Virus record (IMG/VR): IMGVR_UViG_3300000553_000006 | Coordinates: 64,001 to 128,000 of that record | Length of the DNA stretch: 64,000 bases | Strand: one strand, 5' to 3' | Origin: a virus | Lineage: Duplodnaviria; Heunggongvirae; Uroviricota; Caudoviricetes | Shown: positions 8,713 through 25,631 of the stretch, piece by piece | Layout: each line of letters opens with the position of its first letter | How positions within the stretch are numbered: position 1 is the stretch's first letter | Notes under the pieces: generated by a model | What the model saw: the letters and a program-made list of their open reading frames with translations, nothing else | The model's database searches: none | What the model was told of the DNA's origin: nothing | Made by a program: the position numbers and the translations under genes

Positions 8713-8858
8713 TCCTTTATTGGTCGTATTCTCCAGCCTACTTTCTTGACGATAAAGTTCTTAGAAACACCGAAGCGTTCCATCACCCACCGAGGAGAAA
8801 ATCCGAGCTCTAACGCCGCGCGGACCATTCTCTTCAGTATATCGTCGTAGCTAGTCAT
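8703..8858 (-). CDS. Small hypothetical protein (51 aa)
   Basis: MTSYDDILKRMVRAALELGFSPRWVMERFGVS...; overlaps the gp43 stop and fills the gap. Confidence 0.4.
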   Translation of the reverse strand: MTSYDDILKRMVRAALELGFSPRWVMERFGVSKNFIVKKVGWRIRPIKDWM

Positions 8859-11331
8859 CAAAGAAACTTTCTAGTGTGTTAACATATTCAGTCTTCCACC
8901 CAATAGTTCCAGTGATAATCTTCAGTGGGTCCAGGAAGGATTTGTCAAATTGCAAGTCATAATCTATATATTGGTCGATTCCAAGAGCTTTTGGAAGGCT
9001 GTGAACAACTGAGATGATGTTCTCTTTTACTGGGTTTGGTAGCTTCAGATAACAGAACTTGATCTTCTCACCTTCCATTACTGGAGGATAACGCTTGTCA
9101 AGACCACGAGTCTTAAGTAGATGGTTGTAAACAAGAGCACCACGCACGTGAATTGGAGTTCCAGAAGCATAGATGTTCGAAGCACTTGAGAATTTCGCAA
9201 GATTATTACACCCACGAGGGAAAGCAATATCTTCGAATGGAAGTGTTCTAAACTCTTCTCGGAACTTTGAGATAAATTCCATCAATGTTTCTTCATCACC
9301 GTTCATGATAATGTTGAGAGCTTGCTTGATCTTGTTTCGGCAAGCAGATGGAGTTGATGACTTAACTGCTTCAATACCCATCATCTTCAATTCAGGAGAC
9401 TTGTAACGAACACCTTCGTTGTCCCACACGTTCAGAATGTAACGCTTCTTCGCAGTCCAGATACCCTTGTCAGCAATAGACTCACGCTTCATTTCCAAGA
9501 AGTTGGTGTAAGAATTTGTAATTTGAGCAAACTGAACAAAAAGTTTGTCAATATGTGGACCAAGTTTTTCTTTACATACAGTATCAACAAAATTAATCTT
9601 ATCTTCCATAGATCTATTCTTCATGTACATATTGACAAAAGATCCTAGTTTCAGATAGTTTGAGTCAGTATCTACTGCAATTACATAATCAGCCTTGGTC
9701 TTAAGAAGGTAATTCAAGTATCTATTCATACCTGTTTCAATATAACGAATGGCATACTGACCAGACAAAGTAATTGCTTCAGCAAAGTCAACAGAATACC
9801 AACGGCAGTAAGCATTTCCGATAGCGCCGTAAAGGCTGTTCAGCTGGATCTTACGAGCCATCTGCATGTTATTGTATCGGGCAATCAGATTCTTGTTTTC
9901 TTTACTTGGATTTTCTTGATACGCCTTCTTGGCTTCAATCATAAGCTTCTTATAACGCTTACGATCTTCCATCATTGTTTCAACAATCTCTGGGAACAAA
10001 CCCTTCTTAGTCTTGTCCCATAGAGTACCGTTCGCAGCATAGGTCACATCGTAACCAAAACTACGATCAACATTTACATTATCAAGTAAATCATCTACGC
10101 TTGGATACGGGATCTTACCTCTATACGTTTCTGGAGACAGATTATATTGTACAATCAGAGACGGATACAGAGAAGTAACGTCAAATGATACTACCCATTC
10201 ATGCAGACCAACTTGAGGATCTTTAACATACGCACCAGCATATTGGTCGTTCTTGTTTGATACCTTGAGTTGTGGAATCACAAGCTTACGATCAAGCATG
10301 TAGTTGTGAATGATGGTATCCCAAAGTCGAACAGAAGTAAACACATCTTCTAGATTGATCTTGGCGTCATACGCAATAGTAAACGCCTGATCAAGCAGGT
10401 TCATTTTCTCGTCTAGTTTATCAACGAGCTCAACGTCGCGGATGTTATACTCAATGAATTTCTGAAAGTCTCTTTTGTACAGATCGAATAGATTGTCGTA
10501 TTCAGAATAATCCAACTTCTTTTCACCAATTTCGACAAAGCAGATATGGTCAAGACGGTATGACTCCTGTTGAGAATACGTGAACTTCTTGTACAGTTGT
10601 TGATAATCTAGAGTAACAATACCCATTGGAGTATAGGATTGTTGCTCACGACCGAAGATCTCAATGTTATGCTCGTTCAGAATTCTCCATGGAGAGAGAA
10701 GCTTTGCGAATTCTTCTCCAAGAACAAGACGAATTCGATTTACCAGATACGGAATATCGAAGAACTCAATGTTCCATCCAGTAATAACATCAAGGTCAAA
10801 TGCTTCCCATGACTTCAGAAACTTCAGTAGAAGTTCTTCTTCGTTCTTACAACGGAAGTACATAATGCGTTCATCATTGTGTGTAAATTCGCCGCATCCA
10901 AATACATGGATTCGGTTACCACACTTCAATGTGATAGCTGTTACTTCACGGTTGGCAAGCTTAATGTCAGGGAACCCGCCTTCAGAATCAACTTCGATGT
11001 CAAGTGTACCGATGTTGATCTTTTCTTTTTCGTAGATGATTTCGCCTGGATAATAGTCGTTGATGAAAGCATAGACGAACTTGTCAAGACCATAAATCTC
11101 AAAGTTGCTTACGTCAGAATACTTCTTCAGAAAGTCTTTACCTTCTGAGATATTCTCAAACGTAATCTTTTCAACTGGTGTTCCGTCTAACGTATGGTAT
11201 TCACTTTCCTTCTTGGACGGAACGAACAAGTAAGGCTCGTATTGAATTTTTCTATTGATTCTTCTTCCGTTATCGTAACCCCGAAGGTAAATGTTATTTC
11301 CCCTCTGAATTGCGCTCGTGTAAAATTTCAT
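8851..11331 (-). CDS. 43: Family B DNA polymerase (T4 gp43-like)
   Basis: Exo DIEVD; SFDVTSLYPSLI; KIQLNSLYG; DTDS; KKRY; C-terminal NTLESFFDD. Confidence 0.98.
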   Translation of the reverse strand: MKFYTSAIQRGNNIYLRGYDNGRRINRKIQYEPYLFVPSKKESEYHTLDGTPVEKITFENISEGKDFLKKYSDVSNFEIYGLDKFVYAFINDYYPGEIIYEKEKINIGTLDIEVDSEGGFPDIKLANREVTAITLKCGNRIHVFGCGEFTHNDERIMYFRCKNEEELLLKFLKSWEAFDLDVITGWNIEFFDIPYLVNRIRLVLGEEFAKLLSPWRILNEHNIEIFGREQQSYTPMGIVTLDYQQLYKKFTYSQQESYRLDHICFVEIGEKKLDYSEYDNLFDLYKRDFQKFIEYNIRDVELVDKLDEKMNLLDQAFTIAYDAKINLEDVFTSVRLWDTIIHNYMLDRKLVIPQLKVSNKNDQYAGAYVKDPQVGLHEWVVSFDVTSLYPSLIVQYNLSPETYRGKIPYPSVDDLLDNVNVDRSFGYDVTYAANGTLWDKTKKGLFPEIVETMMEDRKRYKKLMIEAKKAYQENPSKENKNLIARYNNMQMARKIQLNSLYGAIGNAYCRWYSVDFAEAITLSGQYAIRYIETGMNRYLNYLLKTKADYVIAVDTDSNYLKLGSFVNMYMKNRSMEDKINFVDTVCKEKLGPHIDKLFVQFAQITNSYTNFLEMKRESIADKGIWTAKKRYILNVWDNEGVRYKSPELKMMGIEAVKSSTPSACRNKIKQALNIIMNGDEETLMEFISKFREEFRTLPFEDIAFPRGCNNLAKFSSASNIYASGTPIHVRGALVYNHLLKTRGLDKRYPPVMEGEKIKFCYLKLPNPVKENIISVVHSLPKALGIDQYIDYDLQFDKSFLDPLKIITGTIGWKTEYVNTLESFFDD

Positions 11332-12566: not shown

Positions 12567-12970
12567 TACCTTTTCCCGATAGAGTATTTGGGTATTAGCT
12601 TCCAGTCATCCTTCTCTTTGTGGGCAACGATCTTGATTTGACTCATGGGTGCAGTTGGGCTGGAAGTTGACTTCGAATCAACAATAGTTACTAGACCCCA
12701 CTCGGCAAGAAGATTAGCAATAGTATTTCTACGAGCAATATCACTTTCGGAAAAATCGGTTGGCTTACCGTCCAGAACAAACATTTGCTTAAAGTGGACA
12801 ATGTAATACTTGTTCTTCTTGTGCAAAATGTGACAAGATTGATAAAGGATTTTCTCTTTTCTGGAAGCAACGCCGATTCGTGTAAGCGTTTCCTTGACTT
12901 TAAGAAAGTCATCTGGCTTTGCCAGCTTAACTTCGACCATCGATTCTAAAATATCACTCATTACTATCAC
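12566..12970 (-). CDS. regA: Translational repressor RegA
   Basis: DFLKVKETLTRIGVAS...LYQSCHILHK...YYIVHFK...LDGK. Confidence 0.95.
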   Translation of the reverse strand: MIVMSDILESMVEVKLAKPDDFLKVKETLTRIGVASRKEKILYQSCHILHKKNKYYIVHFKQMFVLDGKPTDFSESDIARRNTIANLLAEWGLVTIVDSKSTSSPTAPMSQIKIVAHKEKDDWKLIPKYSIGKR

Positions 12971-13359
12971 CTTTGTTCTTGTTTCTTCTTCAATAATTTG
13001 ACTTGTGCGTCAGTGAGAATGGCAAGAGCAGCTTCAGCCTTTACAGTGTTATATCCATAAGCCTGTTTTACTATCTCAAGGTCACTCACACCTTTTTCTT
13101 TCTTGTACCAGGGAGTGTAGGGTCGTTTCCACTTCCTTACACTATTTATGAGGTACTCGAATTGCATCAAATTATCAAGACCATGAAACAAATTCATGTT
13201 GTTTGAATCCATTACCGTGTCAATATTATACGATAATGCTTTGTTTACAATAAACGGATTATACTCTTGTTCTTCAACTTCAGGTATCTCTCCGTTGCGA
13301 ATGATATTCTTCCCGTCTTGAAGAATATCCTTTACATACTCAAAAGGGTTTGTTGACAT
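12967..13359 (-). CDS. 62: Clamp loader small subunit (gp62)
   Basis: YNPFIVNKALSY, QFEYLINSVRK, YGYNTVKA; start moved to MSTNPF after GGAG. Confidence 0.9.
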   Translation of the reverse strand: MSTNPFEYVKDILQDGKNIIRNGEIPEVEEQEYNPFIVNKALSYNIDTVMDSNNMNLFHGLDNLMQFEYLINSVRKWKRPYTPWYKKEKGVSDLEIVKQAYGYNTVKAEAALAILTDAQVKLLKKKQEQR

Positions 13360-13370
13360 AAACTCTCCAT

Positions 13371-13437
13371 TATAAATAAACGTAGGTCGCGAGGGTGAGA
13401 GCTCCACCTACACTAGTCCCTGAAGGAGAACCAGCAC
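13371..13437 (+). promoter_or_regulatory. Late promoter TATAAATA, leader hairpin (13382-13411) and Shine-Dalgarno of the NUMOD3 gene
   Basis: TATAAATA; GTAGGT-CGC-GAG...CTC-C-ACCTAC; AAGGAG...CAGCACATG. Confidence 0.7.
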
Positions 13438-13938
13438 ATGACTATTTATTGTCCAATCGCCGAAGCATTAGGTGTGACTCCCCAAGAAATTGACTATGTC
13501 AATGGTTGGGAAGGAAGAATTGTACATACGCATATTCATTGTAACTTCAATCTTGGATTAAAAAGATCTGAAGAAGCAAAACGAAATATGAGTTTAGCAC
13601 AAATCAATTCCAAAAATCACTCTACTAGAAATAAGAAAAGACCAGATTTTGCTAAAAGAATGAAAGGTGAAAACAATCCTTTCTTCAATAAGTCTCATAC
13701 TGCTGAAACTAAATCTAAAATGTCAATAGCTGCACAGAATAGATCAGAAGAAGTAAAGAAAAAGTATTCTGACATAGCTAAAAATAGATCTAAAGCATAT
13801 ATTGAGAAATTAAGTAAAACTCAGAAAACTAAACGACATTTTACTGATGGCGTAAACAATCTTTTCATAAATCCAGCAGATGGTATACCTGATGGTTATC
13901 GTCCAGGAAGAACACTTAAGCCCAGAGTGCTCATTTGA
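13438..13938 (+). mobile_element. NUMOD3-repeat homing-endonuclease-like gene with no recognisable catalytic domain
   Basis: GLKRSEEAKRNMS, GENNPFFNKSHTAETKSKMS; antisense insertion between gp44 and gp62; AT-rich. Confidence 0.75.
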
Positions 13939-14890
13939 AAGTACAGTTGATCATGATTTCAGTAAAGCAAGCAACTGCATTGATCTCAGGATTAGCAACG
14001 AACGCATGCTTGAATTGATATTCGCCAGCCGTGATTACAAACTGAGGAATAGACTCTGCTTCAAGAACATCAACAGCGTTGTCATACAACATACGAAGCA
14101 TAGTGTTGAAGTCCATGTCTGAGTTTTGAGCAACCCAGCGACGCATCTTACCAAAGTCCTTATCCTTCAGAGCCTTGATTAGAGCACGGAAAGAGTCGAC
14201 GTTGTGATCAACTAGAATACCAGAGTCAATCTTACCAGTTACAGAGTAACGTTGAAGCTCATTGATAATACGACGGAAGTCTGGGAAGTGTACACCGATC
14301 AACTCGGCAACAGCACCCTTGTCATATTCAATACCTTCAAGAGTAAGAATTTCTTGAATACGCTTGAACAGTTCCATTGCGATCTGTTCTTTGTCCTTCT
14401 TCAGAATCTTGAATTCGATAGGAGGACAACGCGAACGAAGCGGCTCAAGAAGCTTGTTCTTGTAGTTACAAGTCAGAATAAATCCACAGTTTGCAGAGTA
14501 TTCTTCAATGAAGTTACGAAGAGCAGGCTGAACAGATTGAGCGTTTAGGTAATCCGCTTCGTCAAGAATGACGTACTTTCTGCGTCCAGTAAATGATACA
14601 GTAGCCGCAAAGTCTCGGATATGTGTGCGAAGAGTGTCAATGTTTCTCCCTTCAAGTGATCCGTTGATAACAATGTAATCAGCTTCAAGTTCTTCAAGCA
14701 TAGCTTTGGCAACAGTAGTCTTACCTGTACCTGCACCGCCGCTAAGAGTCATGTTTGGAACATCACCTTTAGCGACGAATTGCTTGAAAGTTTCCTTTAG
14801 ATTTTCTGGTAGAATACAGTCATCGATCTTCCTTGGACGATACTTCTCTGACCATAGGAATTCGTTTTGATTAGTATTTAATTCATTCAT
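13931..14890 (-). CDS. 44: Clamp loader large subunit (gp44)
   Basis: LWSEKYRP, GGAGTGKTT, ILDEADYL, LRSRC, FPDFRRIINELQRY. Confidence 0.97.
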   Translation of the reverse strand: MNELNTNQNEFLWSEKYRPRKIDDCILPENLKETFKQFVAKGDVPNMTLSGGAGTGKTTVAKAMLEELEADYIVINGSLEGRNIDTLRTHIRDFAATVSFTGRRKYVILDEADYLNAQSVQPALRNFIEEYSANCGFILTCNYKNKLLEPLRSRCPPIEFKILKKDKEQIAMELFKRIQEILTLEGIEYDKGAVAELIGVHFPDFRRIINELQRYSVTGKIDSGILVDHNVDSFRALIKALKDKDFGKMRRWVAQNSDMDFNTMLRMLYDNAVDVLEAESIPQFVITAGEYQFKHAFVANPEINAVACFTEIMINCTFK

Positions 14891-14905
14891 TATAATACTC
14901 CATGA

Positions 14906-14976
14906 CATAAATAATCATATAATGTGGTTCGCGGAGTACCAGTCCCAACCACTCTATTCTAACGGGAGAACAGCAC
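14906..14976 (+). promoter_or_regulatory. Late promoter CATAAATA, leader hairpin (14924-14952) and Shine-Dalgarno of the GIY-YIG gene
   Basis: GTGGTT-CGC-GGA...TCC-C-AACCAC; GGGAG...CAGCACATG; same architecture as 13371-13437. Confidence 0.7.
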
Positions 14977-15501
14977 ATGTTTACTTATATTCCTTACACT
15001 TACCTCATCGGCTGGACCAACCACAATAAGTGGTATTATGGTGTACGATTTGCTAAGAATTGTTCTCCATCAGAACTGTGGAGAACATATTTCACATCAT
15101 CAACTCATGTAAAAGAATTCAGAAAACAATATGGTGAACCTGATGTAATTGAAATCAGAAAAACCTTTGTTGATTCTCTAAAAGCAAAAACTTGGGAACA
15201 TAAAGTTCTAAAGAAACTCAATGTAATTAATGAAGAGAAATGGCTAAATCAAAACCATAACATGTTTCCATTTAATACTAAGAACAAAGATTATATGAAA
15301 ACGCCTGAATACAAAGAAAAGATGAGGCTTGCTAAACTTGGATCTACACCTTGGAATAAAGGTAAGAAAGGTCTCCAAACACAATCAGCAGAAAGAAGAT
15401 TACAAGTTAGTCAGCAAATGAAAGGAAATACTCATCTTAAAGGATTTAAACATAGTGAAGAAACCAAAAGAAAGATGAGTGAAGCTCACCGAAAATGTTA
15501 G
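14977..15501 (+). mobile_element. GIY-YIG (Seg-like) homing endonuclease with NUMOD3 tail
   Basis: YTYLIGW...WYYGVR...YFTSS...EHKVL; GFKHSEETKRKMS; antisense insertion between gp45 and gp44. Confidence 0.85.
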
Positions 15502-16151
15502 CTTTTGCGAACTTCGGTGGCAATCCAGTATTCACGGTCGTCGTTCTCAAAGTGAGCGAGACCCTTAGAAGATACAGTAACTGTGTAGTCCAGTTGCTGA
15601 ACCTTTAGATTTTCTACCTTGAACACAACTCGGAAGTCTGTGTCCGTGTCACCAAGATCTAGCTTGAAAGTATCACCAGACTTGTTTGAAACGTCCTCGG
15701 CACTCACAGTAATTGTACCGTCGGCACCAGTAATAACCACTTCTGGAACTTGAAGAACAGAAGCAGCGCGGTGAATCTTATTGATTGCTTCACCCTTTAG
15801 AAGAAACGCTGCGTCGGTTGAAGGAAGAACAATATCCTTCTTAGGAGCAGCAACAATAGTGTCGATCGATGCATAATACATCTTCGTCACGTACTTGTTC
15901 TTATCACTGATGACCACATGATCAGACTTGAAGTCAAAATCAGGATCATCCATAATTGATACTACACCAAGAAACTTGGTAAGATTATGAAGAGCAATTT
16001 CCACTGGGAAGTTGTCATCTACTGTAGTCTTAGCCACAATAGTCTTTGAAGGTGAAACGGTCTTAAGTACATTTCCCTTACTAATCGCAATAGATGGATT
16101 GATCGTAGAGAATTCCTTGAGCGCGTTTACAGCCTTGTCACTTAATTTCAT
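15498..16151 (-). CDS. 45: Sliding clamp (gp45)
   Basis: MKLSDKAVNALKEFSTINPSI...FKVENLK...YWIATE; position in the 45-44-62-regA-43 cluster. Confidence 0.93.
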   Translation of the reverse strand: MKLSDKAVNALKEFSTINPSIAISKGNVLKTVSPSKTIVAKTTVDDNFPVEIALHNLTKFLGVVSIMDDPDFDFKSDHVVISDKNKYVTKMYYASIDTIVAAPKKDIVLPSTDAAFLLKGEAINKIHRAASVLQVPEVVITGADGTITVSAEDVSNKSGDTFKLDLGDTDTDFRVVFKVENLKVQQLDYTVTVSSKGLAHFENDDREYWIATEVRKS

Positions 16152-16311
16152 AGTTTAACTCCTTCAACATTAACGAACCATCAGTATAAACCCATTGACC
16201 ATTATTGTCAACTGTTGCGTATACCACTTTATTAATACCTAACATGTGTTGTAATTGCTTCTCATATTTCTTTAGAATACAATACACTTCATGTGCTGTA
16301 TATTTTTGCAT
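16138..16311 (-). CDS. Small hypothetical protein (57 aa)
   Basis: MQKYTAHEVYCILKK...; TAATG coupling with the glycosyltransferase stop. Confidence 0.4.
   Translation of the reverse strand: MQKYTAHEVYCILKKYEKQLQHMLGINKVVYATVDNNGQWVYTDGSLMLKELNYEIK
16183..16211 (-). promoter_or_regulatory. Sigma70-type promoter for gp45
   Basis: TTGACA-17 nt-TATACT upstream of AAGGAG. Confidence 0.7.
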
Positions 16312-17273
16312 TAGCTCTTGCTACCAAGCTTACCTGGGTCTACTGTTGCAGCAGCACCAACTTGAGCAAGATCCATCAAAGTACCACCGAAGATGTATGA
16401 GCCTACGTGTTGTAGACCAATCCATGGGCATAGCCATACCTTAAGACCAGCATTACGAGCCCATTGACAGAACATGTAATCTTCTGACAAGTAACGGAAT
16501 GAGAACTCATTACCATCTACGTCGTGCTTGGTGTCATCAATAAAGGCTACGATTTCATCAGGAGTAGCTTCTGGGTTCTTCTCAAAGAACTTACGAATCT
16601 GAGTACGAATATGAGCATGCTTATTGTCAATCAGAGCATCAAAGAATGCCATGATTTCGCGAGAACCATCAAATGCCGCAGTGCGCACGTGGTCTGGTCT
16701 GTACATAAGCTCAGTATACTTTTCTTGCATCTTCAGTAGTGAAGACTTACGGATCATCATAAAGCCTGTTCCGCCTTCAAGAATTTCTGCAGGTTCAGTG
16801 AGAAGAATTTGGTTCTTGCCGCCAGCTGGATTGAATACGTAGTCACCAACAAAGCGTCCAAGATTATTTGGGTCTTGATCGGCCATACCCTTATCTACTG
16901 CAACCTTGATCTTTTCCCAAGCAATACACTTCTTTGGGTAAGGACCGCAGAGAATATCATATTCGCTATCTTCTGATTGCATAGCAAGCATGTTAAACAC
17001 ATCTTGAGCATTGAATCCAATGTCAGAGTCAATGAAGATCATGTGAGTACAATCAGAACGAATGAATTCGTCTACGCAGTAGTTACGAGCACGAGTGATC
17101 AAAGATTCGTTAAACAAGTAATAGAAGCGAACTTCAATACCATAGTGGGTTGACATTGCAGCAAGATCGTTAGTAGAACGACAGAACATACCAGCGCATT
17201 GTCCACCGTACATTGGTGTAGCTACGAACAGCTTACGCTTTTGCATTTCCTCGATAGGAACATTTACTTCCAT
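16311..17273 (-). CDS. GT-A fold glycosyltransferase-like protein
   Basis: LFVATPMYGG, ESLITRARN, FIDSDI (DxD), GTGFMMIRK, YLSEDYMFC, HVG. Confidence 0.8.
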   Translation of the reverse strand: MEVNVPIEEMQKRKLFVATPMYGGQCAGMFCRSTNDLAAMSTHYGIEVRFYYLFNESLITRARNYCVDEFIRSDCTHMIFIDSDIGFNAQDVFNMLAMQSEDSEYDILCGPYPKKCIAWEKIKVAVDKGMADQDPNNLGRFVGDYVFNPAGGKNQILLTEPAEILEGGTGFMMIRKSSLLKMQEKYTELMYRPDHVRTAAFDGSREIMAFFDALIDNKHAHIRTQIRKFFEKNPEATPDEIVAFIDDTKHDVDGNEFSFRYLSEDYMFCQWARNAGLKVWLCPWIGLQHVGSYIFGGTLMDLAQVGAAATVDPGKLGSKS

Positions 17274-17724: not shown

Positions 17725-17732
17725 TATTTATA
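17725..17732 (-). promoter_or_regulatory. Late promoter TATAAATA
   Basis: Exact T4 late consensus 30 nt upstream of the DUF3310-like start. Confidence 0.65.
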
Positions 17733-17745
17733 TAGCGCGTAGGGG

Positions 17746-18540
17746 TTAGTTGAAAAAATCTTCCAACGTATTTGTTGGAACTTCTGCGGTTCTGTCCTTC
17801 AGGCGAAGCTCTGCGTGGCCAGTTGTTTCACGAATATACATTGTGCAATGGTGTGGAAACATCTCAACGATCTTACAAATAGAATCATGGACGTATTCCT
17901 TGGTACGAATGGTTTGTAGACCACCATCTTCCTTGTAGTAGTTTGACTTGACAGTATAGTTGTCTAGTCTGCATACAGCACCGTTCTTGATGTATTGACG
18001 AATGCTGTATTCATAATCTTCACCGTGATTGGTAACACGAGCAAGGAATGGATCGTGTTCAACAATAACGCCGAACATAGAAGCAATCACATAACAAAGC
18101 TTTGTGTAAACGCGATCCTTCATGAAGTATGCGTTAGAAGCAGCGTAGATACCAAAGGTCTTGGCACCAACCTTTTCGCATTCTTCAAAGCCGCGTTCAA
18201 TGATTTCCTTTTCAAGATTGTCGATCGGACCAAGCTTTTGTTCACTGATCTTGCGTTGCACTTCCTCAACGTCATCGTCAAACATCATCAACTTGGTTCC
18301 TTCTGGATACCAGTTCTCGATGAAGTTACGTTGAGCACCAATAGTTGGAACACCAAGAACGATGTTCTGACAAGGAGTATCCTTCAGACTCTTAGTATAC
18401 GCGTCAAGTTCTTCTTCGTTAGCCACGAACACAGTGATCTTTGCTGGATCAATTTTGTGATGTTCAAGAACCTTCAGCGTCTTCTTCTTGATAGTTTCCG
18501 GTCTCTTATATGACGGAATAGCAATTTTATAGTCAATCAT
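17746..18540 (-). CDS. TET-associated (GREB1/JGT-like, TAGT) GT-A glycosyltransferase
   Basis: IAIPSYKR, MFDDDV, GEDYEYSI, GGLQ; coupled to a TET/JBP gene; ends NTLEDFFN. Confidence 0.8.
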   Translation of the reverse strand: MIDYKIAIPSYKRPETIKKKTLKVLEHHKIDPAKITVFVANEEELDAYTKSLKDTPCQNIVLGVPTIGAQRNFIENWYPEGTKLMMFDDDVEEVQRKISEQKLGPIDNLEKEIIERGFEECEKVGAKTFGIYAASNAYFMKDRVYTKLCYVIASMFGVIVEHDPFLARVTNHGEDYEYSIRQYIKNGAVCRLDNYTVKSNYYKEDGGLQTIRTKEYVHDSICKIVEMFPHHCTMYIRETTGHAELRLKDRTAEVPTNTLEDFFN

Positions 18541-19877
18541 TAAAAGAAATCCTCCAATGATCCGGCGGTAGCTTTACCGTAAGGATCTTCCATATTATGT
18601 TTGGCCATGTAATCAAACCACTCTTGCTCATCCCACATACCTGGAGAAACTCCATTCCAAAGCTTGCGCCAATATGGGTGATTCTTGTTAGCTCTACGTT
18701 CTTCTACGTATTGCTTACGTAGTTGTTCATACTCCCAAGACTTACAGTCAAGTAGATCTTCGCGAAGATAAGCAACGATAGTCATACGATCTGGATTTTC
18801 GCCACCGAGTGGAGCGTTTCCGTGAAGAGCAGTGTGATTGGCTACAAGAAGTAGATCACCTGGCTCTAGCTTAACGGCTGCTCTATACTCTGGTAGAATC
18901 AACTCAGCGCCTTCCCAACCTTTACCGAGAGCTGACAAATTAGAGAAGCCAGCAGCAAAGTCGCCAGCGTCAAGGTGAGCAGCTGTACGGAAGTTGTGAT
19001 TTACAGTGAGAGTACTAAAGACTGTTTCATCAATAGTGAAACGAGAATCTAGTTGATCAGCCGCGTAACGTTGAGCAGACCAACGTCGGGGAAGCAGTTC
19101 CCGGAAACAGTGGTTCAGTTTCTTAAGAAACTTGAATGACTTAGCAAAGTCGTCAGGGTATTTTTCGGTAAAGCTTGTAACACGCCCATAAGGAATTCTT
19201 GGATATCTTGAATAGAAGCCTGCAACACCGGACATAACTGTTTGGGCGTAGTTGGTTTCGGAGATAAAGTTGTCAAGAATGAATTGAGCTTCTTCTCTTC
19301 TTGTTGCATCATCTTTATTTGATAATCCCTCAACCCATCTGTCGAACCATCCAAAGTAGGGATCGTGGTGTGCACAGACCTCGCTACGTAACCATACGAA
19401 ACCACGTGTGATATCAACTTGCTTTCCTTCATGTCTCTTCTTGATAGCTTCTAGACTGTCATCGTCTAGTAGTGAGTTAGCTGTTCGAGTAAGGAACTCA
19501 AGAACTTCCACTTGATAAGGAGTAACCCACTCACGTCCGCCGCGACCAGAAGCATGCAGGAACTCACCGCGAGGACCAGCCGCCATCCCCCGATTTTGAG
19601 ATTCTGTGGCTGCGTTGATGAGTCCTTCATAGCATAGATCCTGTTCTTCTTGAGTGAACACATTCTTACGGAACATTACAAGAATATTATCTTCGTTCAT
19701 TGTTCCGTCAATAGAAGGTCCATAAACGTCAGTATCTTCAGTAATCAGAGTGTCATAATGACTCTCATCAAGAAACACACCACGTAGGTGGTCGCAGTTT
19801 AGTTTATTCTTGGCGTAGATTACATTTACATGTTTCTTGCGGCAAGGTTGATCACAGTCTTTAAGACAGTTCTTCAT
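18540..19877 (-). CDS. TET/JBP-family 2OG-Fe(II) dioxygenase
   Basis: FSTLTVNHNFRTAAHLDAGD (HxD), GDLLL...LHGN (distal His), RMTIVAYLRE (2OG Arg); ends GSLEDFF. ATG at 19877; the track starts at a TTG at 19901. Confidence 0.88.
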   Translation of the reverse strand: MKNCLKDCDQPCRKKHVNVIYAKNKLNCDHLRGVFLDESHYDTLITEDTDVYGPSIDGTMNEDNILVMFRKNVFTQEEQDLCYEGLINAATESQNRGMAAGPRGEFLHASGRGGREWVTPYQVEVLEFLTRTANSLLDDDSLEAIKKRHEGKQVDITRGFVWLRSEVCAHHDPYFGWFDRWVEGLSNKDDATRREEAQFILDNFISETNYAQTVMSGVAGFYSRYPRIPYGRVTSFTEKYPDDFAKSFKFLKKLNHCFRELLPRRWSAQRYAADQLDSRFTIDETVFSTLTVNHNFRTAAHLDAGDFAAGFSNLSALGKGWEGAELILPEYRAAVKLEPGDLLLVANHTALHGNAPLGGENPDRMTIVAYLREDLLDCKSWEYEQLRKQYVEERRANKNHPYWRKLWNGVSPGMWDEQEWFDYMAKHNMEDPYGKATAGSLEDFF

Positions 19878-19909
19878 TTGTATTCTTCCACGTTGAGTCA
19901 ATGATCAAG

Positions 19910-19951
19910 TATTTAGACAGATATTATACTACACTTTGACAAATTTGTCAA
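19910..19951 (-). promoter_or_regulatory. Tandem perfect sigma70 promoter and late promoter upstream of the TET gene
   Basis: TTGACA (19951-19946)-17 nt-TATAAT (19928-19923), followed by CTAAATA (19916-19910). Confidence 0.75.
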
Positions 19952-20450
19952 TAGCTTTTCTGGCGCGCTTGACCTTTTTCCATCTATTCATGGCTTGTTC
20001 TTTGTGGAACTTGTGAGCTCTATTGATGTGGCACACACCAATAAGGTGATCATACTCATGAAGAAATACTCGTGCTGACATACCATCTAGAGTCATTGTT
20101 TGTGACTCATTTGATGGGAATGTAAAACGAACCTTGATCATTCGAGGACGACGAATCTTTACTGCTAGACCTGGGTATGACAAACAACCTTCGTCAAGCA
20201 GAACTGTCTCTTCTGACATCTCAACAATACGTGGATTGATTACAATAGTTGCTGGCGTAGAAGCCATAGCAAAGATACGATAAGGAATACCGACCTGTGG
20301 TGCGGCAAGCCCAAGACCGTTTTCATTGATCATCTTCTGAGCCAAAGCTTCTGAGAACTCAAGAATATTGAATGGCGAATTATCAAAATTGAATCGTTCC
20401 GCTTCTTGAGTTAGAATTGGGTCGTCATAGTTTACTAGAGTAAGATCCAT
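19929..20450 (-). CDS. def: Peptide deformylase
   Basis: GLGLAAPQVG, EGCLS, HEYDHL; start at MDLTL after GAGGA. Confidence 0.95.
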   Translation of the reverse strand: MDLTLVNYDDPILTQEAERFNFDNSPFNILEFSEALAQKMINENGLGLAAPQVGIPYRIFAMASTPATIVINPRIVEMSEETVLLDEGCLSYPGLAVKIRRPRMIKVRFTFPSNESQTMTLDGMSARVFLHEYDHLIGVCHINRAHKFHKEQAMNRWKKVKRARKAIDKFVKV

Positions 20451-20580
20451 AGTATAGTTCCTCGTCGTCATGTACAATTGTTTTCTTTGGCTTAGGCTTT
20501 GGTTCAATACCAAGTAGAGAACGCTTTATTTCCTTTGCCATTTCACGTCGAAATTCATCTTCGTGTTCTTCTTCGTTCAT
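20425..20580 (-). CDS. Small hypothetical protein (51 aa)
   Basis: MNEEEHEDEFRREMAKEIK...; ATGA overlap with the MazG-like stop. Confidence 0.45.
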   Translation of the reverse strand: MNEEEHEDEFRREMAKEIKRSLLGIEPKPKPKKTIVHDDEELYYGSYSSKL

Positions 20581-20954
20581 AGATTCAATACTTTCCTTAG
20601 ATTAGGACTTTCGTAGTTTGGTCCCTTGATTACCTTACCGTCTTCACGGCGGACAGGTTTACCGTCAGCACCAAGCTTTGTCATGTTGCTTCTGTGAATT
20701 TCATCAAAGCAAGCATCAAGATCAATACCGAACGCTAGACCAGCACCATATACTACATATAGGATGTCTGTTAGTGCATCAGCAACTTCAACCAAATCTT
20801 TTTCTTTGATCGCGTCACGCAGTTCCTTGAACTCTTCACGAATCAAAGCAACGCGCAGATTTACAGTCTTTCTGTTTGGGAATTGAGGAGAAGGCTTGTT
20901 TTCTACTTCAAACTTCTCATGGAACTCAAGAACTTTTTGGAAATTACTCGTCAT
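20577..20954 (-). CDS. MazG-like / PRA-PH family NTP pyrophosphohydrolase
   Basis: LIREEFKEL, EVADALTDILYV, EIHRSNMTK, DGKVIKGPNY. Confidence 0.9.
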   Translation of the reverse strand: MTSNFQKVLEFHEKFEVENKPSPQFPNRKTVNLRVALIREEFKELRDAIKEKDLVEVADALTDILYVVYGAGLAFGIDLDACFDEIHRSNMTKLGADGKPVRREDGKVIKGPNYESPNLRKVLNL

Positions 20955-21307
20955 TCTACTATCCTTATATAACATGGCTTGCCAAGTTTGTTCATTTGTT
21001 GAATCATGTTTTTGGAACCCGGAGAAGATCCGTCCCAAAGAACGATGGCTGCATCTGCAATCTTTGCCATTTCAGCATTTCTGATTGGTCCTGCAGCCTT
21101 ACCGTGTTTGTTCCAGTCAGCTGGCATTTCAATAAGACCGAGGTTTGATACTCTGGCATACTTCTCGCCTAGAGAATCTACACCTCTCGCCTTACCACAT
21201 ACAACATCAGTTATAGTATAGCCTGAAAGCTTAATAGTTTCAAGCAAAATCTTATAACTCTCAAGGTCTTCAGGGAAATTTCTACTTCCGGCGATCACTA
21301 CTTTCAT
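20951..21307 (-). CDS. SLOG superfamily (YspA/DUF2493-like) protein
   Basis: KVVIAGSRNF, VVCGKARGVD, ADWNKHGKAAGPIRNAEM, WDGSSPGS. Confidence 0.85.
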   Translation of the reverse strand: MKVVIAGSRNFPEDLESYKILLETIKLSGYTITDVVCGKARGVDSLGEKYARVSNLGLIEMPADWNKHGKAAGPIRNAEMAKIADAAIVLWDGSSPGSKNMIQQMNKLGKPCYIRIVE

Positions 21308-21495: not shown

Positions 21496-23213
21496 TAGTC
21501 TACCATCCTGCTAAAATTCTTGACTTTTTCAAACTTTACTACACGCTCAAACTTGTCACTGATGTTCTCAGTCTTGTGACTGATAATGAAGATGTTCGTA
21601 TCCTTTACAAGTGATTGTAAGATCTTCATAAATTCTTCAGAACCTGATGCATCCAGCGATCCATCAAAAATTTCATCCATGACAAGCAGATTGGTACTGT
21701 TGCTATTTCTGATCTTAGATATGGTTCTCCAACAAAGCATGAGAGCCAAGTCAATACGACACTTCTCACCTTCACTGAAGGACTCGTAGGAGAAATCGTC
21801 TCGGTATCTTGACTTGATTTTTTCATTGAAGTTCTCATCCAGCTCGAATTGAACGAAGAAGTCCATCGCAGCTAAATACTTATTTATAAGTTTGTTCATG
21901 ATCGGAATATACTGCTTGATGATCTTGGCTTTAATCCCGCCATCCTTCAGCAATACAGACGCGATGTCAAGAGTAGCCTTGTCATGAACAAGTTCTTCCT
22001 TCAACGCTTCATAACCAGCAGCCAATTCAGTCAGTTCTTTTAGCTTCTTCTTTTCTACACGAACCGAAGAGTCTTCAGAATTGATTGAGTTGATTTGATC
22101 TTCTTCAGAAGCGATTTGTTTTTCAATGAATTTGATCTGACTGTTGTTTGTGTTAAGTGTTTGATACAACTCAATAAGTCTGTCCTTTGTTTCCTTGATT
22201 TCAGCAAGGCGCAGACTTACTTTGTTCCACTCTTCCTCAAGTTTAGTTAGAGCATCTTCCGTCTCTGTGAGCGATTCAGTTTTGGAATCGATGGTCGTGC
22301 ATTTGAATTCATGATCGATTCCCTGTCTGCACGTTGGACAGGTATCATTGACACTGAAGAAAGTAATATCTGCTTTAAGCTTTCTGAGTTTGTCATCTAA
22401 TTGTTTCTCCAATTGAGTAATGGTAACGGATTTTTTACTTACAGCCGTCTCGTCTTCAACAGTTGTTTCAAGTTCGCTGATGGTTTTTTGTAGAGCTTCG
22501 TTCTCATTTACGAGTTCAGTTACGTTCTCTCTCATGTTATGAATAAGAAGCTTCTTACCATCCACAAGCTTTTGACTGTTTTGTTCTAAACTCTTGATGT
22601 GTTTCTTTTGCATCTCGATCTTCTCATCATGAAGATCGATTTGATACTTAACATCCATCAGAGCAGACTTATTCTCTGCAATCTTATCACGAAGTAATCC
22701 AAACATGACAGAGAAAATACCAATGTCAAGTAGATCTTCGTTAAATTCTCTACGAGCGTGCGCTGGCAGCTGCATAAACGGAACGTAGGTTGATGCGCCA
22801 AGAGTAACGATTTGAGTAAATGATTTGTGATTAAGCTTTAGAATATGCTTCTCAAGATAATCTTGATAGTCTCTAGAAGCAGCATCTTGATTGATCAGAG
22901 TTCCATTTTGGAAGATCTCAAATATCGTAGGCTTAATACCGCGTCTTACCTTATACTCATTTTGATTGATAGAAAATTCAATCTCACAAAGCAAACCCTT
23001 ACCATTGATACTGTTAATCAGCTGTGGCTTGTTAATCTTACGGAAAGGCTTACCATACAATGAGAATGAAATCGCATCAATGAAAGTACTCTTTCCGGCT
23101 CCATTTTGTCCAACAATTAGTGTAGTTTCATGAGAGCACAAGTCCATTTCTGTAAACACATTTCCGCTGGACAACAAATTCATCCATCTTACACACTTAA
23201 ATATAATCGCCAT
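21495..23213 (-). CDS. 46: Recombination endonuclease ATPase subunit (gp46, Rad50/SbcC-like)
   Basis: GQNGAGKST, CPTC hook, FSEGEK signature, LLVMDEIFD, ISHK. Confidence 0.97.
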   Translation of the reverse strand: MAIIFKCVRWMNLLSSGNVFTEMDLCSHETTLIVGQNGAGKSTFIDAISFSLYGKPFRKINKPQLINSINGKGLLCEIEFSINQNEYKVRRGIKPTIFEIFQNGTLINQDAASRDYQDYLEKHILKLNHKSFTQIVTLGASTYVPFMQLPAHARREFNEDLLDIGIFSVMFGLLRDKIAENKSALMDVKYQIDLHDEKIEMQKKHIKSLEQNSQKLVDGKKLLIHNMRENVTELVNENEALQKTISELETTVEDETAVSKKSVTITQLEKQLDDKLRKLKADITFFSVNDTCPTCRQGIDHEFKCTTIDSKTESLTETEDALTKLEEEWNKVSLRLAEIKETKDRLIELYQTLNTNNSQIKFIEKQIASEEDQINSINSEDSSVRVEKKKLKELTELAAGYEALKEELVHDKATLDIASVLLKDGGIKAKIIKQYIPIMNKLINKYLAAMDFFVQFELDENFNEKIKSRYRDDFSYESFSEGEKCRIDLALMLCWRTISKIRNSNSTNLLVMDEIFDGSLDASGSEEFMKILQSLVKDTNIFIISHKTENISDKFERVVKFEKVKNFSRMVD

Positions 23214-23214
23214 T

Positions 23215-23781
23215 TTAAGCCTTATCTATACAAGAAATGGTATGCCTAGAAATAACATTTGTGGCGTAGCTTTTACCACAGTTACTACAAAGCACCTTTG
23301 AGAATACTCTTCCTTTGTTGTAAGAATGTCCCATATGAGCTAATCTATTTTGTTCTTTAGCTGATTCGGTATGTTTCTTACCTTTGAATCCAGAAATCGT
23401 CCCTTTCTTTGATTCTGAAATTTTTGCAGCCCAAAGCTCTTTTTCTTTGAACTTTCTAGACTTTCCTGTTAAAGAATCTCTACGTTTTGCAATATGCTCT
23501 TCGGATTGAGATTTTCCTAATTTAGCAATTCGCATTTTATGTTTTGATTCATCACTACATTTAATACCCAATCTACCTAATTTTTGCGCTGTTTTTATTG
23601 CTTCAGCGTTTGTTATTTGACCTGATAAGGTTTGCCAAGCAATTTTATCTTGCCATCTACCATACATTTCATATAATTGTTTATGCGCTTCAGCATGCTC
23701 TTCTATAGACAATTCAATTAAATTATCTGGAGAATTAGATCCTCCAACATGTTTTGGTATTTTATGATGTTTGTGATACAT
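23215..23781 (-). mobile_element. HNH homing endonuclease with NUMOD3 repeats and C-terminal Zn finger
   Basis: HKHHKIPKHVGGSNSPDNLIELSIEEHAEAH; inserted between gp47 and gp46; AT-rich. Confidence 0.9.
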
Positions 23782-24851: not shown

Positions 24852-25033
24852 ACTCTCGCCTTCTTGAAGTTAGCTTCACGATCATACTTTTCAATGTTAC
24901 TCTTGCAGAATTCTTGAATACTCAGTAGAGTAGTTCTGTAGTTGTAACGAATATTATCCGGAGTGTTTTTATCACTCAGCTTCAACGCCATATCAAGAAT
25001 CAGTGGCGGAATGTTGTTGTATTCCTTCTGCAT
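24848..25033 (-). CDS. Small hypothetical protein between gp55 and gp47
   Basis: 61 aa ORF overlapping both neighbours. Confidence 0.6.
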   Translation of the reverse strand: MQKEYNNIPPLILDMALKLSDKNTPDNIRYNYRTTLLSIQEFCKSNIEKYDREANFKKARV

Positions 25034-25631
25034 TGTTATCTTCCTCTATAAAAACTTCCACGCCCTTCTTCTTGGCGGGCTTGTTTTTGCTTTGCAGCTT
25101 TGCTTCGTAGTCAGTAACGAATTTATCCATTCTGTCTACGTGATCTTTGTAGTGGTGATTTGATCCCTTCTTGTGAGCAGGCATGTCAGTACCACCTTCT
25201 CCTGAACCCATGTATTCCATAAGCTCATCTAGAACATTTAGGTTCTCAAATACCTTGTACTTCACATAGGTTTGCTTATGTTCCTTGGCGATCCTATGCA
25301 AGAATGCATTATAAATGATCATTGTAAAATAAGCAAATGGATTATTTGACTTTTCTGGGTTGAAATTGTGCATATAAGCAATACAATTCTCAATTCCGTC
25401 GCCAATCATTTCTTCCTTGTAAGTATAGGAAATGAAGTTTGACTTATACGATAACTTAGTAGCAATTTTCAAAATACAAGAACCAATATACTCCGGAATT
25501 CTAGGAGCCGGAAGGTCGTTCTTCTTACATTCTCTATACTCATTAATGTATTTGATCATATGAGTATACAGCAATTTATTATCAACGTAGTGTGCAAGAG
25601 CTTTCTTGCCGGTAGCAACTTTTTTATTCAT
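24993..25631 (-). CDS. 55: Late-transcription sigma factor (gp55)
   Basis: HYVDNK, NFISYTYKEEMIGDGIENC, FNPEKSNNPFAYFT. Confidence 0.96.
   Translation of the reverse strand: MNKKVATGKKALAHYVDNKLLYTHMIKYINEYRECKKNDLPAPRIPEYIGSCILKIATKLSYKSNFISYTYKEEMIGDGIENCIAYMHNFNPEKSNNPFAYFTMIIYNAFLHRIAKEHKQTYVKYKVFENLNVLDELMEYMGSGEGGTDMPAHKKGSNHHYKDHVDRMDKFVTDYEAKLQSKNKPAKKKGVEVFIEEDNNAEGIQQHSATDS

Follow-up and report, generated by a model that had tools for sequence, protein, structure and literature searches.

The window considered here, i.e., the whole 64,000-nucleotide stretch of DNA that was analysed, corresponds to bases 64001-128000 of a single 134,193-bp IMG/VR virus contig (IMGVR_UViG_3300000553_000006) with a completeness of about 76%, and the phage it represents is T4-like. 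On its minus strand, which carries all features given with coordinates below unless stated otherwise, a co-oriented block encodes gp41 helicase, UvsX, gp43, RegA, gp62, gp44, gp45, a 320-residue phrog_1574 protein, a DUF3310 protein, a TET-associated glycosyltransferase (TAGT), a TET/JBP-family dioxygenase (TET), peptide deformylase, MazG, gp46, gp47, and gp55. Our subject is the short peptide in which TET and TAGT both end and which resembles the end of gp43, the replicative DNA polymerase of the same phage. As judged from comparative evidence, these C-terminal [ST]-L-[ED]-x-F-F peptides are likely sliding-clamp-binding motifs (SCBMs) like the one at the end of gp43, and the clamp probably serves as a tether for DNA hypermodification on newly replicated phage DNA.

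The TET gene (18540..19877) codes for a TET/JBP-family 2-oxoglutarate (2OG)/Fe(II) DNA dioxygenase of 445 amino acids, which is recognized by the Pfam family Tet_JBP (PF12851; 3.6e-22; 78.8 bits versus a cut-off of 34.9) and by phrog_24024. The iron triad consisting of H309, D311, and H360 and the 2OG-binding R372 are invariant in the alignment of homologues, and an AlphaFold2 (AF2) model with a predicted local distance difference test (pLDDT) of 90.7 has CcTet, NgTET1, and human TET2 as its top Foldseek matches (E about 1e-10). The open frame extends to a TTG at 19901, and the ATG at 19877 is the likely start since homologues begin with MKNC. TET belongs to a long subfamily (~430-470 amino acids, phrog_24024) which is annotated as "SNF2 DNA repair protein" in the phages Cr30, DLP_6, S-CBWM1, and HTVC112P.

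The TAGT gene (17746..18540) codes for a glycosyltransferase (GT) of 264 amino acids with a GT-A fold (Pfam TAGT, PF20691; 1.5e-16; 61.4 bits versus a cut-off of 27.5), in which the acidic residues D88-D89-D90 of DxD type are invariant among aligned homologues and whose AF2 model (pLDDT 85) finds GT-A enzymes in Foldseek. Pfam and PHROG place it in TAGT, phrog_25200, and phrog_842, and no homology to the α-glucosyltransferase (α-GT) of T4 (PF11440) was found; TAGT may act like α-GT but is not a member of that family. The stop codon of TET and the start codon of TAGT overlap as TAATG, and TAGT is, to judge by this arrangement, translationally coupled to TET. An earlier reading made from the letters of the DNA (the sequence-only reading) had claimed both this coupling and the oxygenase start at 19877, and the overlap and the N-termini of homologues agree with them. 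The last codons of TET (TTG GAG GAT TTC TTT) hold a GGAGGA Shine-Dalgarno sequence, 9 nt before the ATG of TAGT.

The shared C-terminal peptide and its conservation

Translation bears out that TET ends in GSLEDFF, TAGT in NTLEDFFN, and gp43 in NTLESFFDD, as had been noticed before. The proposed gp45-binding motifs are SLEDFF in TET (18543..18560, following KATAG) and TLEDFFN in TAGT (17749..17769, following VPTN). In gp43, a family-B replicative DNA polymerase (8851..11331; Pfam DNA_pol_B 1e-32, phrog_262), the corresponding segment is TLESFFDD (8854..8877, following YVN), which is a clamp-binding tail by positional homology with gp43 of T4 and T6: in BLASTP alignments, YVNTLESFF matches residue for residue EKASLDFLF of T6 gp43, where the sequence equals that of T4. 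Among related gp43 proteins, 76 of 80 end in a [ST]-[LI]-[ED]-x-[FW]-F tail, mostly [ST]LExFF. In T4, the gp43 tail mediates binding to gp45, and likeness to it led to the gp45-binding LDFLF loop of T4 ligase, with a dissociation constant of 10.7 uM (PMC6212786); T4 gp55 and gp33 dock with a linker-attached SCBM on the same hydrophobic patch of gp45 (PMC7892883).

The pattern LE[DSE]FF has three occurrences in the six frames, both of the window and of the 134,193-bp genome in full, and these are the C-termini of TET, TAGT, and gp43. Within the last 9 residues, [ST]L[ED]xFF is present in 3 of 214 predicted proteins; when the same proteins were shuffled 2000 times with their composition preserved, the mean was 0.0025 and the maximum 1. 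The 42,975 residues of the predicted proteome contain no internal copy. Two further open reading frames (ORFs) were considered as carriers in this genome and set aside, one of 126 amino acids that ends in NDIFDMFN and codes for an HNH endonuclease, and one of 57 amino acids that ends in GLHNFFN and has no family.

Conservation was counted over 120 TET and 120 TAGT close homologues; the totals of TET and TAGT matches are 1,580 and 457, respectively. An LxxFF-type tail lies 0-2 residues from the end in 113 of the 120 TET homologues and in 114 of the 120 TAGT homologues (about 95% of the 240). The sequence-only reading had named in advance the absence or poor conservation of the motif in homologues from clamp-encoding phages as the outcome that would count against it, and these frequencies show the opposite. 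In the alignments of both enzymes, the conserved end of the fold is followed by a linker with an entropy of 2.3-3.1 bits and then by the L, F, and F positions with 0.07-0.46 bits; across homologues of 55-97% identity, L, F, and F are kept at the protein level while the linker drifts. The AF2 model of TET shows a coil at model residues 435-448 and a short helix at 449-452, with the pLDDT falling to 65. In TAGT, the core ends with LRLKD249 and is followed by a variable linker of 8 residues and a helix at 259-263, the tail having a pLDDT of 46-52. In homologues from other phages, the enzyme core stops before the tail; the TAGT of Mycobacterium phage Acadian lacks the extension, and the GT of Arthrobacter phage Altadena ends 5 residues past KLKD. 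A variable linker, a conserved L/F/F, and a low-confidence model at the tails of TET and TAGT correspond to the anatomy of a short linear motif.

One might suppose that the likeness of the three tails is a by-product, be it of chance, of a Shine-Dalgarno sequence in the last codons, or of a recent copy of tail-coding DNA, and that it has no docking role. The GGAGGA inside the tail codons of TET fits such a view, as the clamp-type tail and the ribosome-binding site of TAGT share bases. However, three tails are seen where 0.0025 are expected, and the motif is kept in TETs without a downstream TAGT as well as in TAGT and gp43 with other downstream contexts. Moreover, the codons for the five central residues differ among the tails (TTG GAA GAT TTT TTC in TAGT, TTG GAG GAT TTC TTT in TET, CTA GAA AGT TTC TTT in gp43), so that the likeness resides at the protein level and not in a recent DNA copy. 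With the shuffles, the entropy profile of the homologues, and the codon differences all opposed to it, this explanation was rejected and seems highly improbable.

Besides gp43, other clamp ligands known from T4 were sought in this genome. For gp33, the 76%-complete genome yielded no candidate that has the motif. The late sigma factor gp55 (24993-25631) carries GVEVFIEE (25041..25064, within KKGVEVFIEE) 15 residues before its acidic end. Among 11 distinct gp55 tails of relatives, four carry G-[LV]-[DE]-x-[FY]-[VAY]-x-E (GLDVFVE, GLDIFVE, GLELFAE, and GVELYYSE) and one more has GVEKFVTE. By this similarity, GVEVFIEE may be the gp55 clamp-binding motif of the clade, internal instead of terminal.

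Distribution among phages with and without gp45

Thirty related IMG/VR loci with TET all carry replication genes of the same module, in the common order gp55-47-46-MazG-peptide deformylase-TET-...-gp45-44-62-regA, and 17 of them reach gp45. In Stenotrophomonas phage DLP_6, gp43 ends in TLDSFFA, TET in TLGDFFV, and TAGT in DLSSFFN, and in C48C1 the ends are TLEDFFG for gp43 and SLEEFFV for TET. In Caulobacter phage Cr30, gp43 ends in DLSSLFD and a GT with a weak, sub-threshold TAGT match in DLSKLF. The LS-x-LF shared by the latter two is anecdotal, and no claim is made that enzyme and polymerase tails co-vary strictly within genomes. DLP_6, C48C1, and Cr30 are cultured relatives, of which DLP_6 and Cr30 make the idea of a clamp tether directly testable. 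In T6, the match to TAGT lies at 22359-22970 of MH550421.1 (PF20691, 39.4 bits) and contains a single in-frame TAG.

When homologues are reduced to representatives at 50% identity, the long TET subfamily mostly possesses the tail and TETs of ~300 amino acids are devoid of it. In S-CBWM1, neither gp45 nor polB was found, and its TET ends in NWHGK. No tail is present on the TETs of HTVC112P, P12024L, and Altadena, nor on the TAGT of Acadian or the GT of Altadena, and P0326, a long TET encoded on a polA-type cyanophage contig, is tail-less as well. The clamp-less or non-T4-like types without tail comprise a podophage, siphophages, the polA-type cyanophage, and S-CBWM1. Further tail-less long TETs are encoded on contigs of 6 kb (P0312) and 68 kb (P0318), and the phages in question may or may not encode gp45. 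The comparison of C-termini in T4-like and non-T4-like phages, proposed as a check in the sequence-only reading, finds the tail kept in relatives and absent from clamp-less or non-T4-like phages, with the exception of the TAGT of T6.

Several of the tail-less non-T4-like phages have ParB genes as neighbours, and ParB neighbours were encountered only in non-T4-like phages. Many of the ~300-residue TET/JBP homologues (P0339-P0440) end in basic residues followed by G-[DT]-P-L-[YWF], for example RKRGDPLY, GDPLWPE, or SGTPIY. This end may be another docking motif, perhaps tied to the ParB-dependent class of T-dioxygenases, in which a C-terminal extension is needed for activity (PMC13229309).

Proposed docking on the sliding clamp

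The proposed docking partner is the sliding clamp gp45 (15498..16151; Pfam gp45-slide_C 8.5e-16, phrog_223 1.8e-62), which in profile searches against solved structures matches gp45 of RB69 (1b77/1b8h, 4.6e-46) and of T4 (1czd, 6.1e-43). The large subunit of its loader is encoded by gp44 (13931..14908; Pfam Gp44_lid and AAA, phrog_168 3.5e-118) and the small subunit by gp62 (12967..13407; phrog_225 2.6e-34). Structure prediction of clamp and tail had been suggested along with the original proposal; for a gp45 trimer combined with the C-terminal 36 residues of TET it gave an ipSAE of 0.33 (runs 0.33, 0.40, and 0.23), compared with 0.11 for the best control and with 0.00 when gp45 was swapped for an unrelated protein. 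Contact agreement was at least 73% and the partner pLDDT at least 41. Of 80 solved complexes, 58 pass the mark applied, as do 2 of 110 mismatched pairs, and scores of 0.60 or less include only 7 of those 80 solved complexes together with both mismatches that passed. As clamp-peptide complexes of RB69/T4 have been solved (1B8H), the pass may partly reflect memory or likeness. The predicted complex outscores its controls and lends weak support to docking.

The weakness of this prediction, and a TAGT in T6 which works without such a tail, are what one can say in favour of a different partner, i.e., that the peptide docks on the clamp loader, gp32, or a host factor, or that it is a stability or degradation tag, and not a ligand of gp45. 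This is improbable in view of the positional homology of the gp43 tail with the gp45-binding tail of T4 gp43 (PMC6212786), the absence of the tail exactly where gp45 was not found or is not expected (S-CBWM1, the podophage and siphophages, and the polA-type cyanophage), and the predicted score of 0.00 with an unrelated protein in place of gp45. The proposal of the sequence-only reading that both modification enzymes ride the sliding clamp is supported comparatively, by conservation, genomic context, absence elsewhere, and homology to the gp43 tail, from which we infer the binding itself.

A precedent exists in T4, whose α-GT binds gp45 as reported by Sommer et al. in 2004 and confirmed in PMC13216743. 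In the latter study, α-GT co-purifies with gp45 in pull-down experiments and β-glucosyltransferase does not bind gp45, and the interaction of α-GT with gp45 is not the main determinant of the levels of α/β glucosylation. The likeness to the present case consists in a phage DNA glycosyltransferase that is linked to the clamp, the link being predicted here, and in glycosylation proposed to proceed alongside replication. In contrast to TAGT (PF20691, GT-A fold), α-GT belongs to PF11440; a terminal gp43-like peptide is not known to have been described for α-GT, and α-GT with a C-terminal His tag retained its binding to gp45. In T4, the nucleotide already brings the hydroxymethyl group and no DNA oxidase is involved, whereas in the present case the pathway would act on DNA and the enzymes of both its steps have the tail. 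The sequence-only reading was unaware of clamp tethering in phage TET or TAGT enzymes, which agrees with our finding no paper on a clamp motif on TET/JBP, TAGT, or ADDT in the full-text literature searched, where coverage is incomplete and this is no proof of absence; that reading left the α-GT precedent unnamed.

The motifs of TET and TAGT share with the SCBM or PIP-box-like motifs of T4/RB69 gp43, gp55, and gp33 and of the T4 ligase loop (1B8H, 6DRT; PMC6212786, PMC7892883) an L-[DE]-x-φ-F peptide, a flexible linker, a position at the extreme C-terminus, and a cognate gp45 in the same genome. They differ in that their carriers are base-modifying enzymes instead of replication or transcription factors, that binding is predicted, and that the local consensus is [ST]LExFF here and SLDFLF there. 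Already known are clamp tails on gp43, gp55, gp33, and T4 ligase and a clamp-bound T4 α-GT; what appears to be new is such a tail on TET/JBP and TAGT enzymes. If this is true, the clamp "tool-belt" would take in base hypermodification besides replication, repair, and late transcription.

TET and TAGT are encoded inside the replication-gene cluster and co-oriented with gp45, gp44, gp62, and gp43. In the proposed mechanism, gp44/62 would load the trimeric gp45 ring onto phage DNA. Each gp45 subunit offers one hydrophobic pocket, so that TET and TAGT could be held through their flexible tails in pockets free of gp43 or on clamps that stay behind on finished DNA. TET would then oxidise a 5-methylpyrimidine of double-stranded phage DNA, with thymine as the most likely base and 5-hydroxymethyluracil (5hmU) as its product. 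TAGT would attach a sugar to the hydroxyl thus created, and the resulting base-J-like hypermodified base would shield the DNA from host nucleases. Tethering might increase the local enzyme concentration, allow scanning along the DNA, and confine modification to DNA with phage clamps.

The tails might also bind gp45 for a purpose other than modification at the fork, be it post-replicative scanning from clamps on finished DNA, or competition with gp43, gp55, or gp33 for the pockets, which would adjust replication or late transcription. According to the literature, phage 5mYOX/TET enzymes and GTs of TAGT type are post-replicative and act on duplex DNA (PMC13229309, PMC8256090), gp45 has three independent pockets (PMC6212786), gp55 carries the related GVEVFIEE in this phage, and the minor influence of the α-GT contact on modification levels in T4 would be compatible as well. 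As to the place of action, the sequence gives no separation of use at the fork from use behind it. Competition as the main role, however, fails to explain why the tail is found on several unrelated DNA-modifying enzymes and on hardly any other proteins, and we regard this explanation as a whole as rather unlikely. For clamp-tethered modification, fork-coupled use and use of clamps left behind on finished DNA fit equally well, so that "replication-coupled", the term of the sequence-only reading, is retained as one option of two.

Several observations weigh against a clamp tether. Although T6 encodes gp45, its TAGT ends in HPIAVD without a gp43-like tail; the tail is therefore not universal among TAGTs of T4-like phages, and its being a general feature of T-even TAGTs was rejected. 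The TET of Cr30 ends only in GATLF, and matching within genomes can be loose, as in one relative with TLEEWFT on gp43 but TLEDFFS on TET. A baseplate protein of Cr30 matches the loose pattern with LKDFFL; it was discarded as a false positive because this C-terminus belongs to the fold, and the motif alone is thus not diagnostic without a terminal, disordered context. Ploopntkinase3 kinases (PF18751), some GNAT, and some GATase proteins from the cassettes of relatives described below are devoid of the tail. To these add the α-GT/gp45 contact, which does not govern glucosylation levels in T4, and the weakness of the complex prediction as the sole structure-based test.

Eukaryotic DNMT1, which binds PCNA by a PIP box, is likewise a DNA-modifying enzyme held at the replication clamp, as predicted here for TET and TAGT. 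In trypanosomes, JBP and the base-J glucosyltransferase likewise act on thymine, which is oxidised and then glucosylated to base J, again as predicted for TET and TAGT. Both cases concern different lineages and different enzymes, and nothing indicates that the tether is of common origin. Post-replicative hypermodification poses the problems of how every target base is reached before host nucleases act and of how host DNA is spared; a clamp tail common to successive enzymes of the pathway would be a simple and testable answer to both.

The proposed hypermodification cassette, its probable substrate, and neighbouring genes

Relatives have a variable hypermodification cassette in the slot between TET and DUF3310 (loci L010, L014, L023, L026, L027, and L031). 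It contains ADDT and Ploopntkinase3, to which GATase, GNAT, a methyltransferase-like protein, and a GIY-YIG protein may be added. The amino acid:DNA transferases (ADDT, PF18724) of the slot end in NNIERFF, IGLEEFF, or IGVESFFQ, a GNAT in NCLSSFFE, a methyltransferase-like protein in NTLDNFF, and two proteins with weak phrog_3271 matches only in NTLEKFFE and RSLEDFF. A peptide common to at least four unrelated DNA-acting folds can hardly be accounted for other than by a docking label that they share. TAGT is present in 8 of the 30 loci only, yet its identity in these is about 80%, compared with no more than about 40% for gp45, and this contrast suggests an exchange of the cassette among phages.

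Going further, and with somewhat less than even confidence, we consider the gp43-type tail as a general address label for an exchangeable hypermodification cassette in a large group of environmental T4-like phages, in which TET is always present and is accompanied by TAGT, ADDT, GNAT, or a methyltransferase-like enzyme. Since the loader of the phage would put gp45 on phage DNA only, docking on this clamp could provide processive scanning and a discrimination of phage from host DNA for post-replicative thymine modification, with a base-J-like product in the present phage, and would be the clamp counterpart of the activation of ParB-dependent T-dioxygenases. ParB is a DNA-sliding clamp, and the phage clamp may, by analogy, play a similar accessory role. 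A practical by-product would be a tail-based rule for spotting DNA-acting enzymes in T4-like metagenomic contigs.

The substrate base is somewhat more likely thymine, converted to 5hmU and then glycosylated to a base-J-like base, than 5-methylcytosine, which is the alternative. Thymine is favoured because no C5-methyltransferase (PF00145) was found in the 134-kb genome nor in the complete genomes of DLP_6, C48C1, Cr30, and S-CBWM1, because relatives carry ADDT and Ploopntkinase3, a thymidine-hypermodification set, directly after the same TET, and because T-dioxygenases of phages have been demonstrated (PMC13229309). On the other side, the genome is about 76% complete, and a methyltransferase could lie in the missing part.

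With the phage 5mYOX clusters, which combine C5-methyltransferase, TET, and GT (PMC8256090) or consist of ParB-dependent and ParB-independent T-dioxygenases (PMC13229309), the present pair shares a two-step post-replicative pathway of TET/JBP and GT. The characterised enzymes have about 290-300 amino acids and are linked to a C5-methyltransferase or ParB. In contrast, TET of this phage has 445 amino acids with an extra N-terminal region of ~200 residues, lies in a T4-type replication module, and ends in the clamp tail, and no methyltransferase or ParB (PF02195) was found in the 134-kb genome (76% complete), so that it is not assigned to the ParB-dependent 5mYOX class. The presence of clamp-loader genes near some TET clusters is the only clamp-related remark in PMC8256090. 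All this points to an uncharacterised long TET/JBP subfamily, probably of thymine dioxygenases, which might give a base-J-like base in bacterial viruses.

In the described phages with thymidine hypermodification, 5-hydroxymethyldeoxyuridine (5-hmdU) enters DNA as a nucleotide. The enzymes that act on it, i.e., 5-hmdU DNA kinase together with ADDT or aGPT-Pplase (PF18751, PF18724, and PF18746), have counterparts in the ADDT and Ploopntkinase3 of the relatives. The difference is that TET would make 5-hmdU on DNA, and that the window has TAGT in place of ADDT and kinase.

Immediately upstream of TET, and syntenic in nearly all relatives, are genes for peptide deformylase (19929-20513) and for a MazG-like pyrophosphohydrolase (20577-21038). 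One may speculate that MazG beside a DNA-modification cassette might clear unwanted nucleotides. An HNH/homing-endonuclease-like gene (23215-23781, phrog_655) lies between gp46 and gp47, and two plus-strand ORFs (13438-13938 and 14977-15501) break up the minus-strand gp62-gp44-gp45 block; all three are probably mobile endonuclease insertions in the replication module.

Between DUF3310 and gp45, the 320-residue protein (16311-17273) matches phrog_1574, and a Pfam search with it returned no family. Its C-terminus, ATADPxxLG followed by an end rich in K/R, is strongly kept across all relatives (L001-L037). Directly past the stop codon of TAGT and ahead of the DUF3310 gene, the T4 late-promoter consensus TATAAATA occurs on the minus strand at 17725-17732, and the DUF3310 and phrog_1574 genes may therefore also be late-transcribed.

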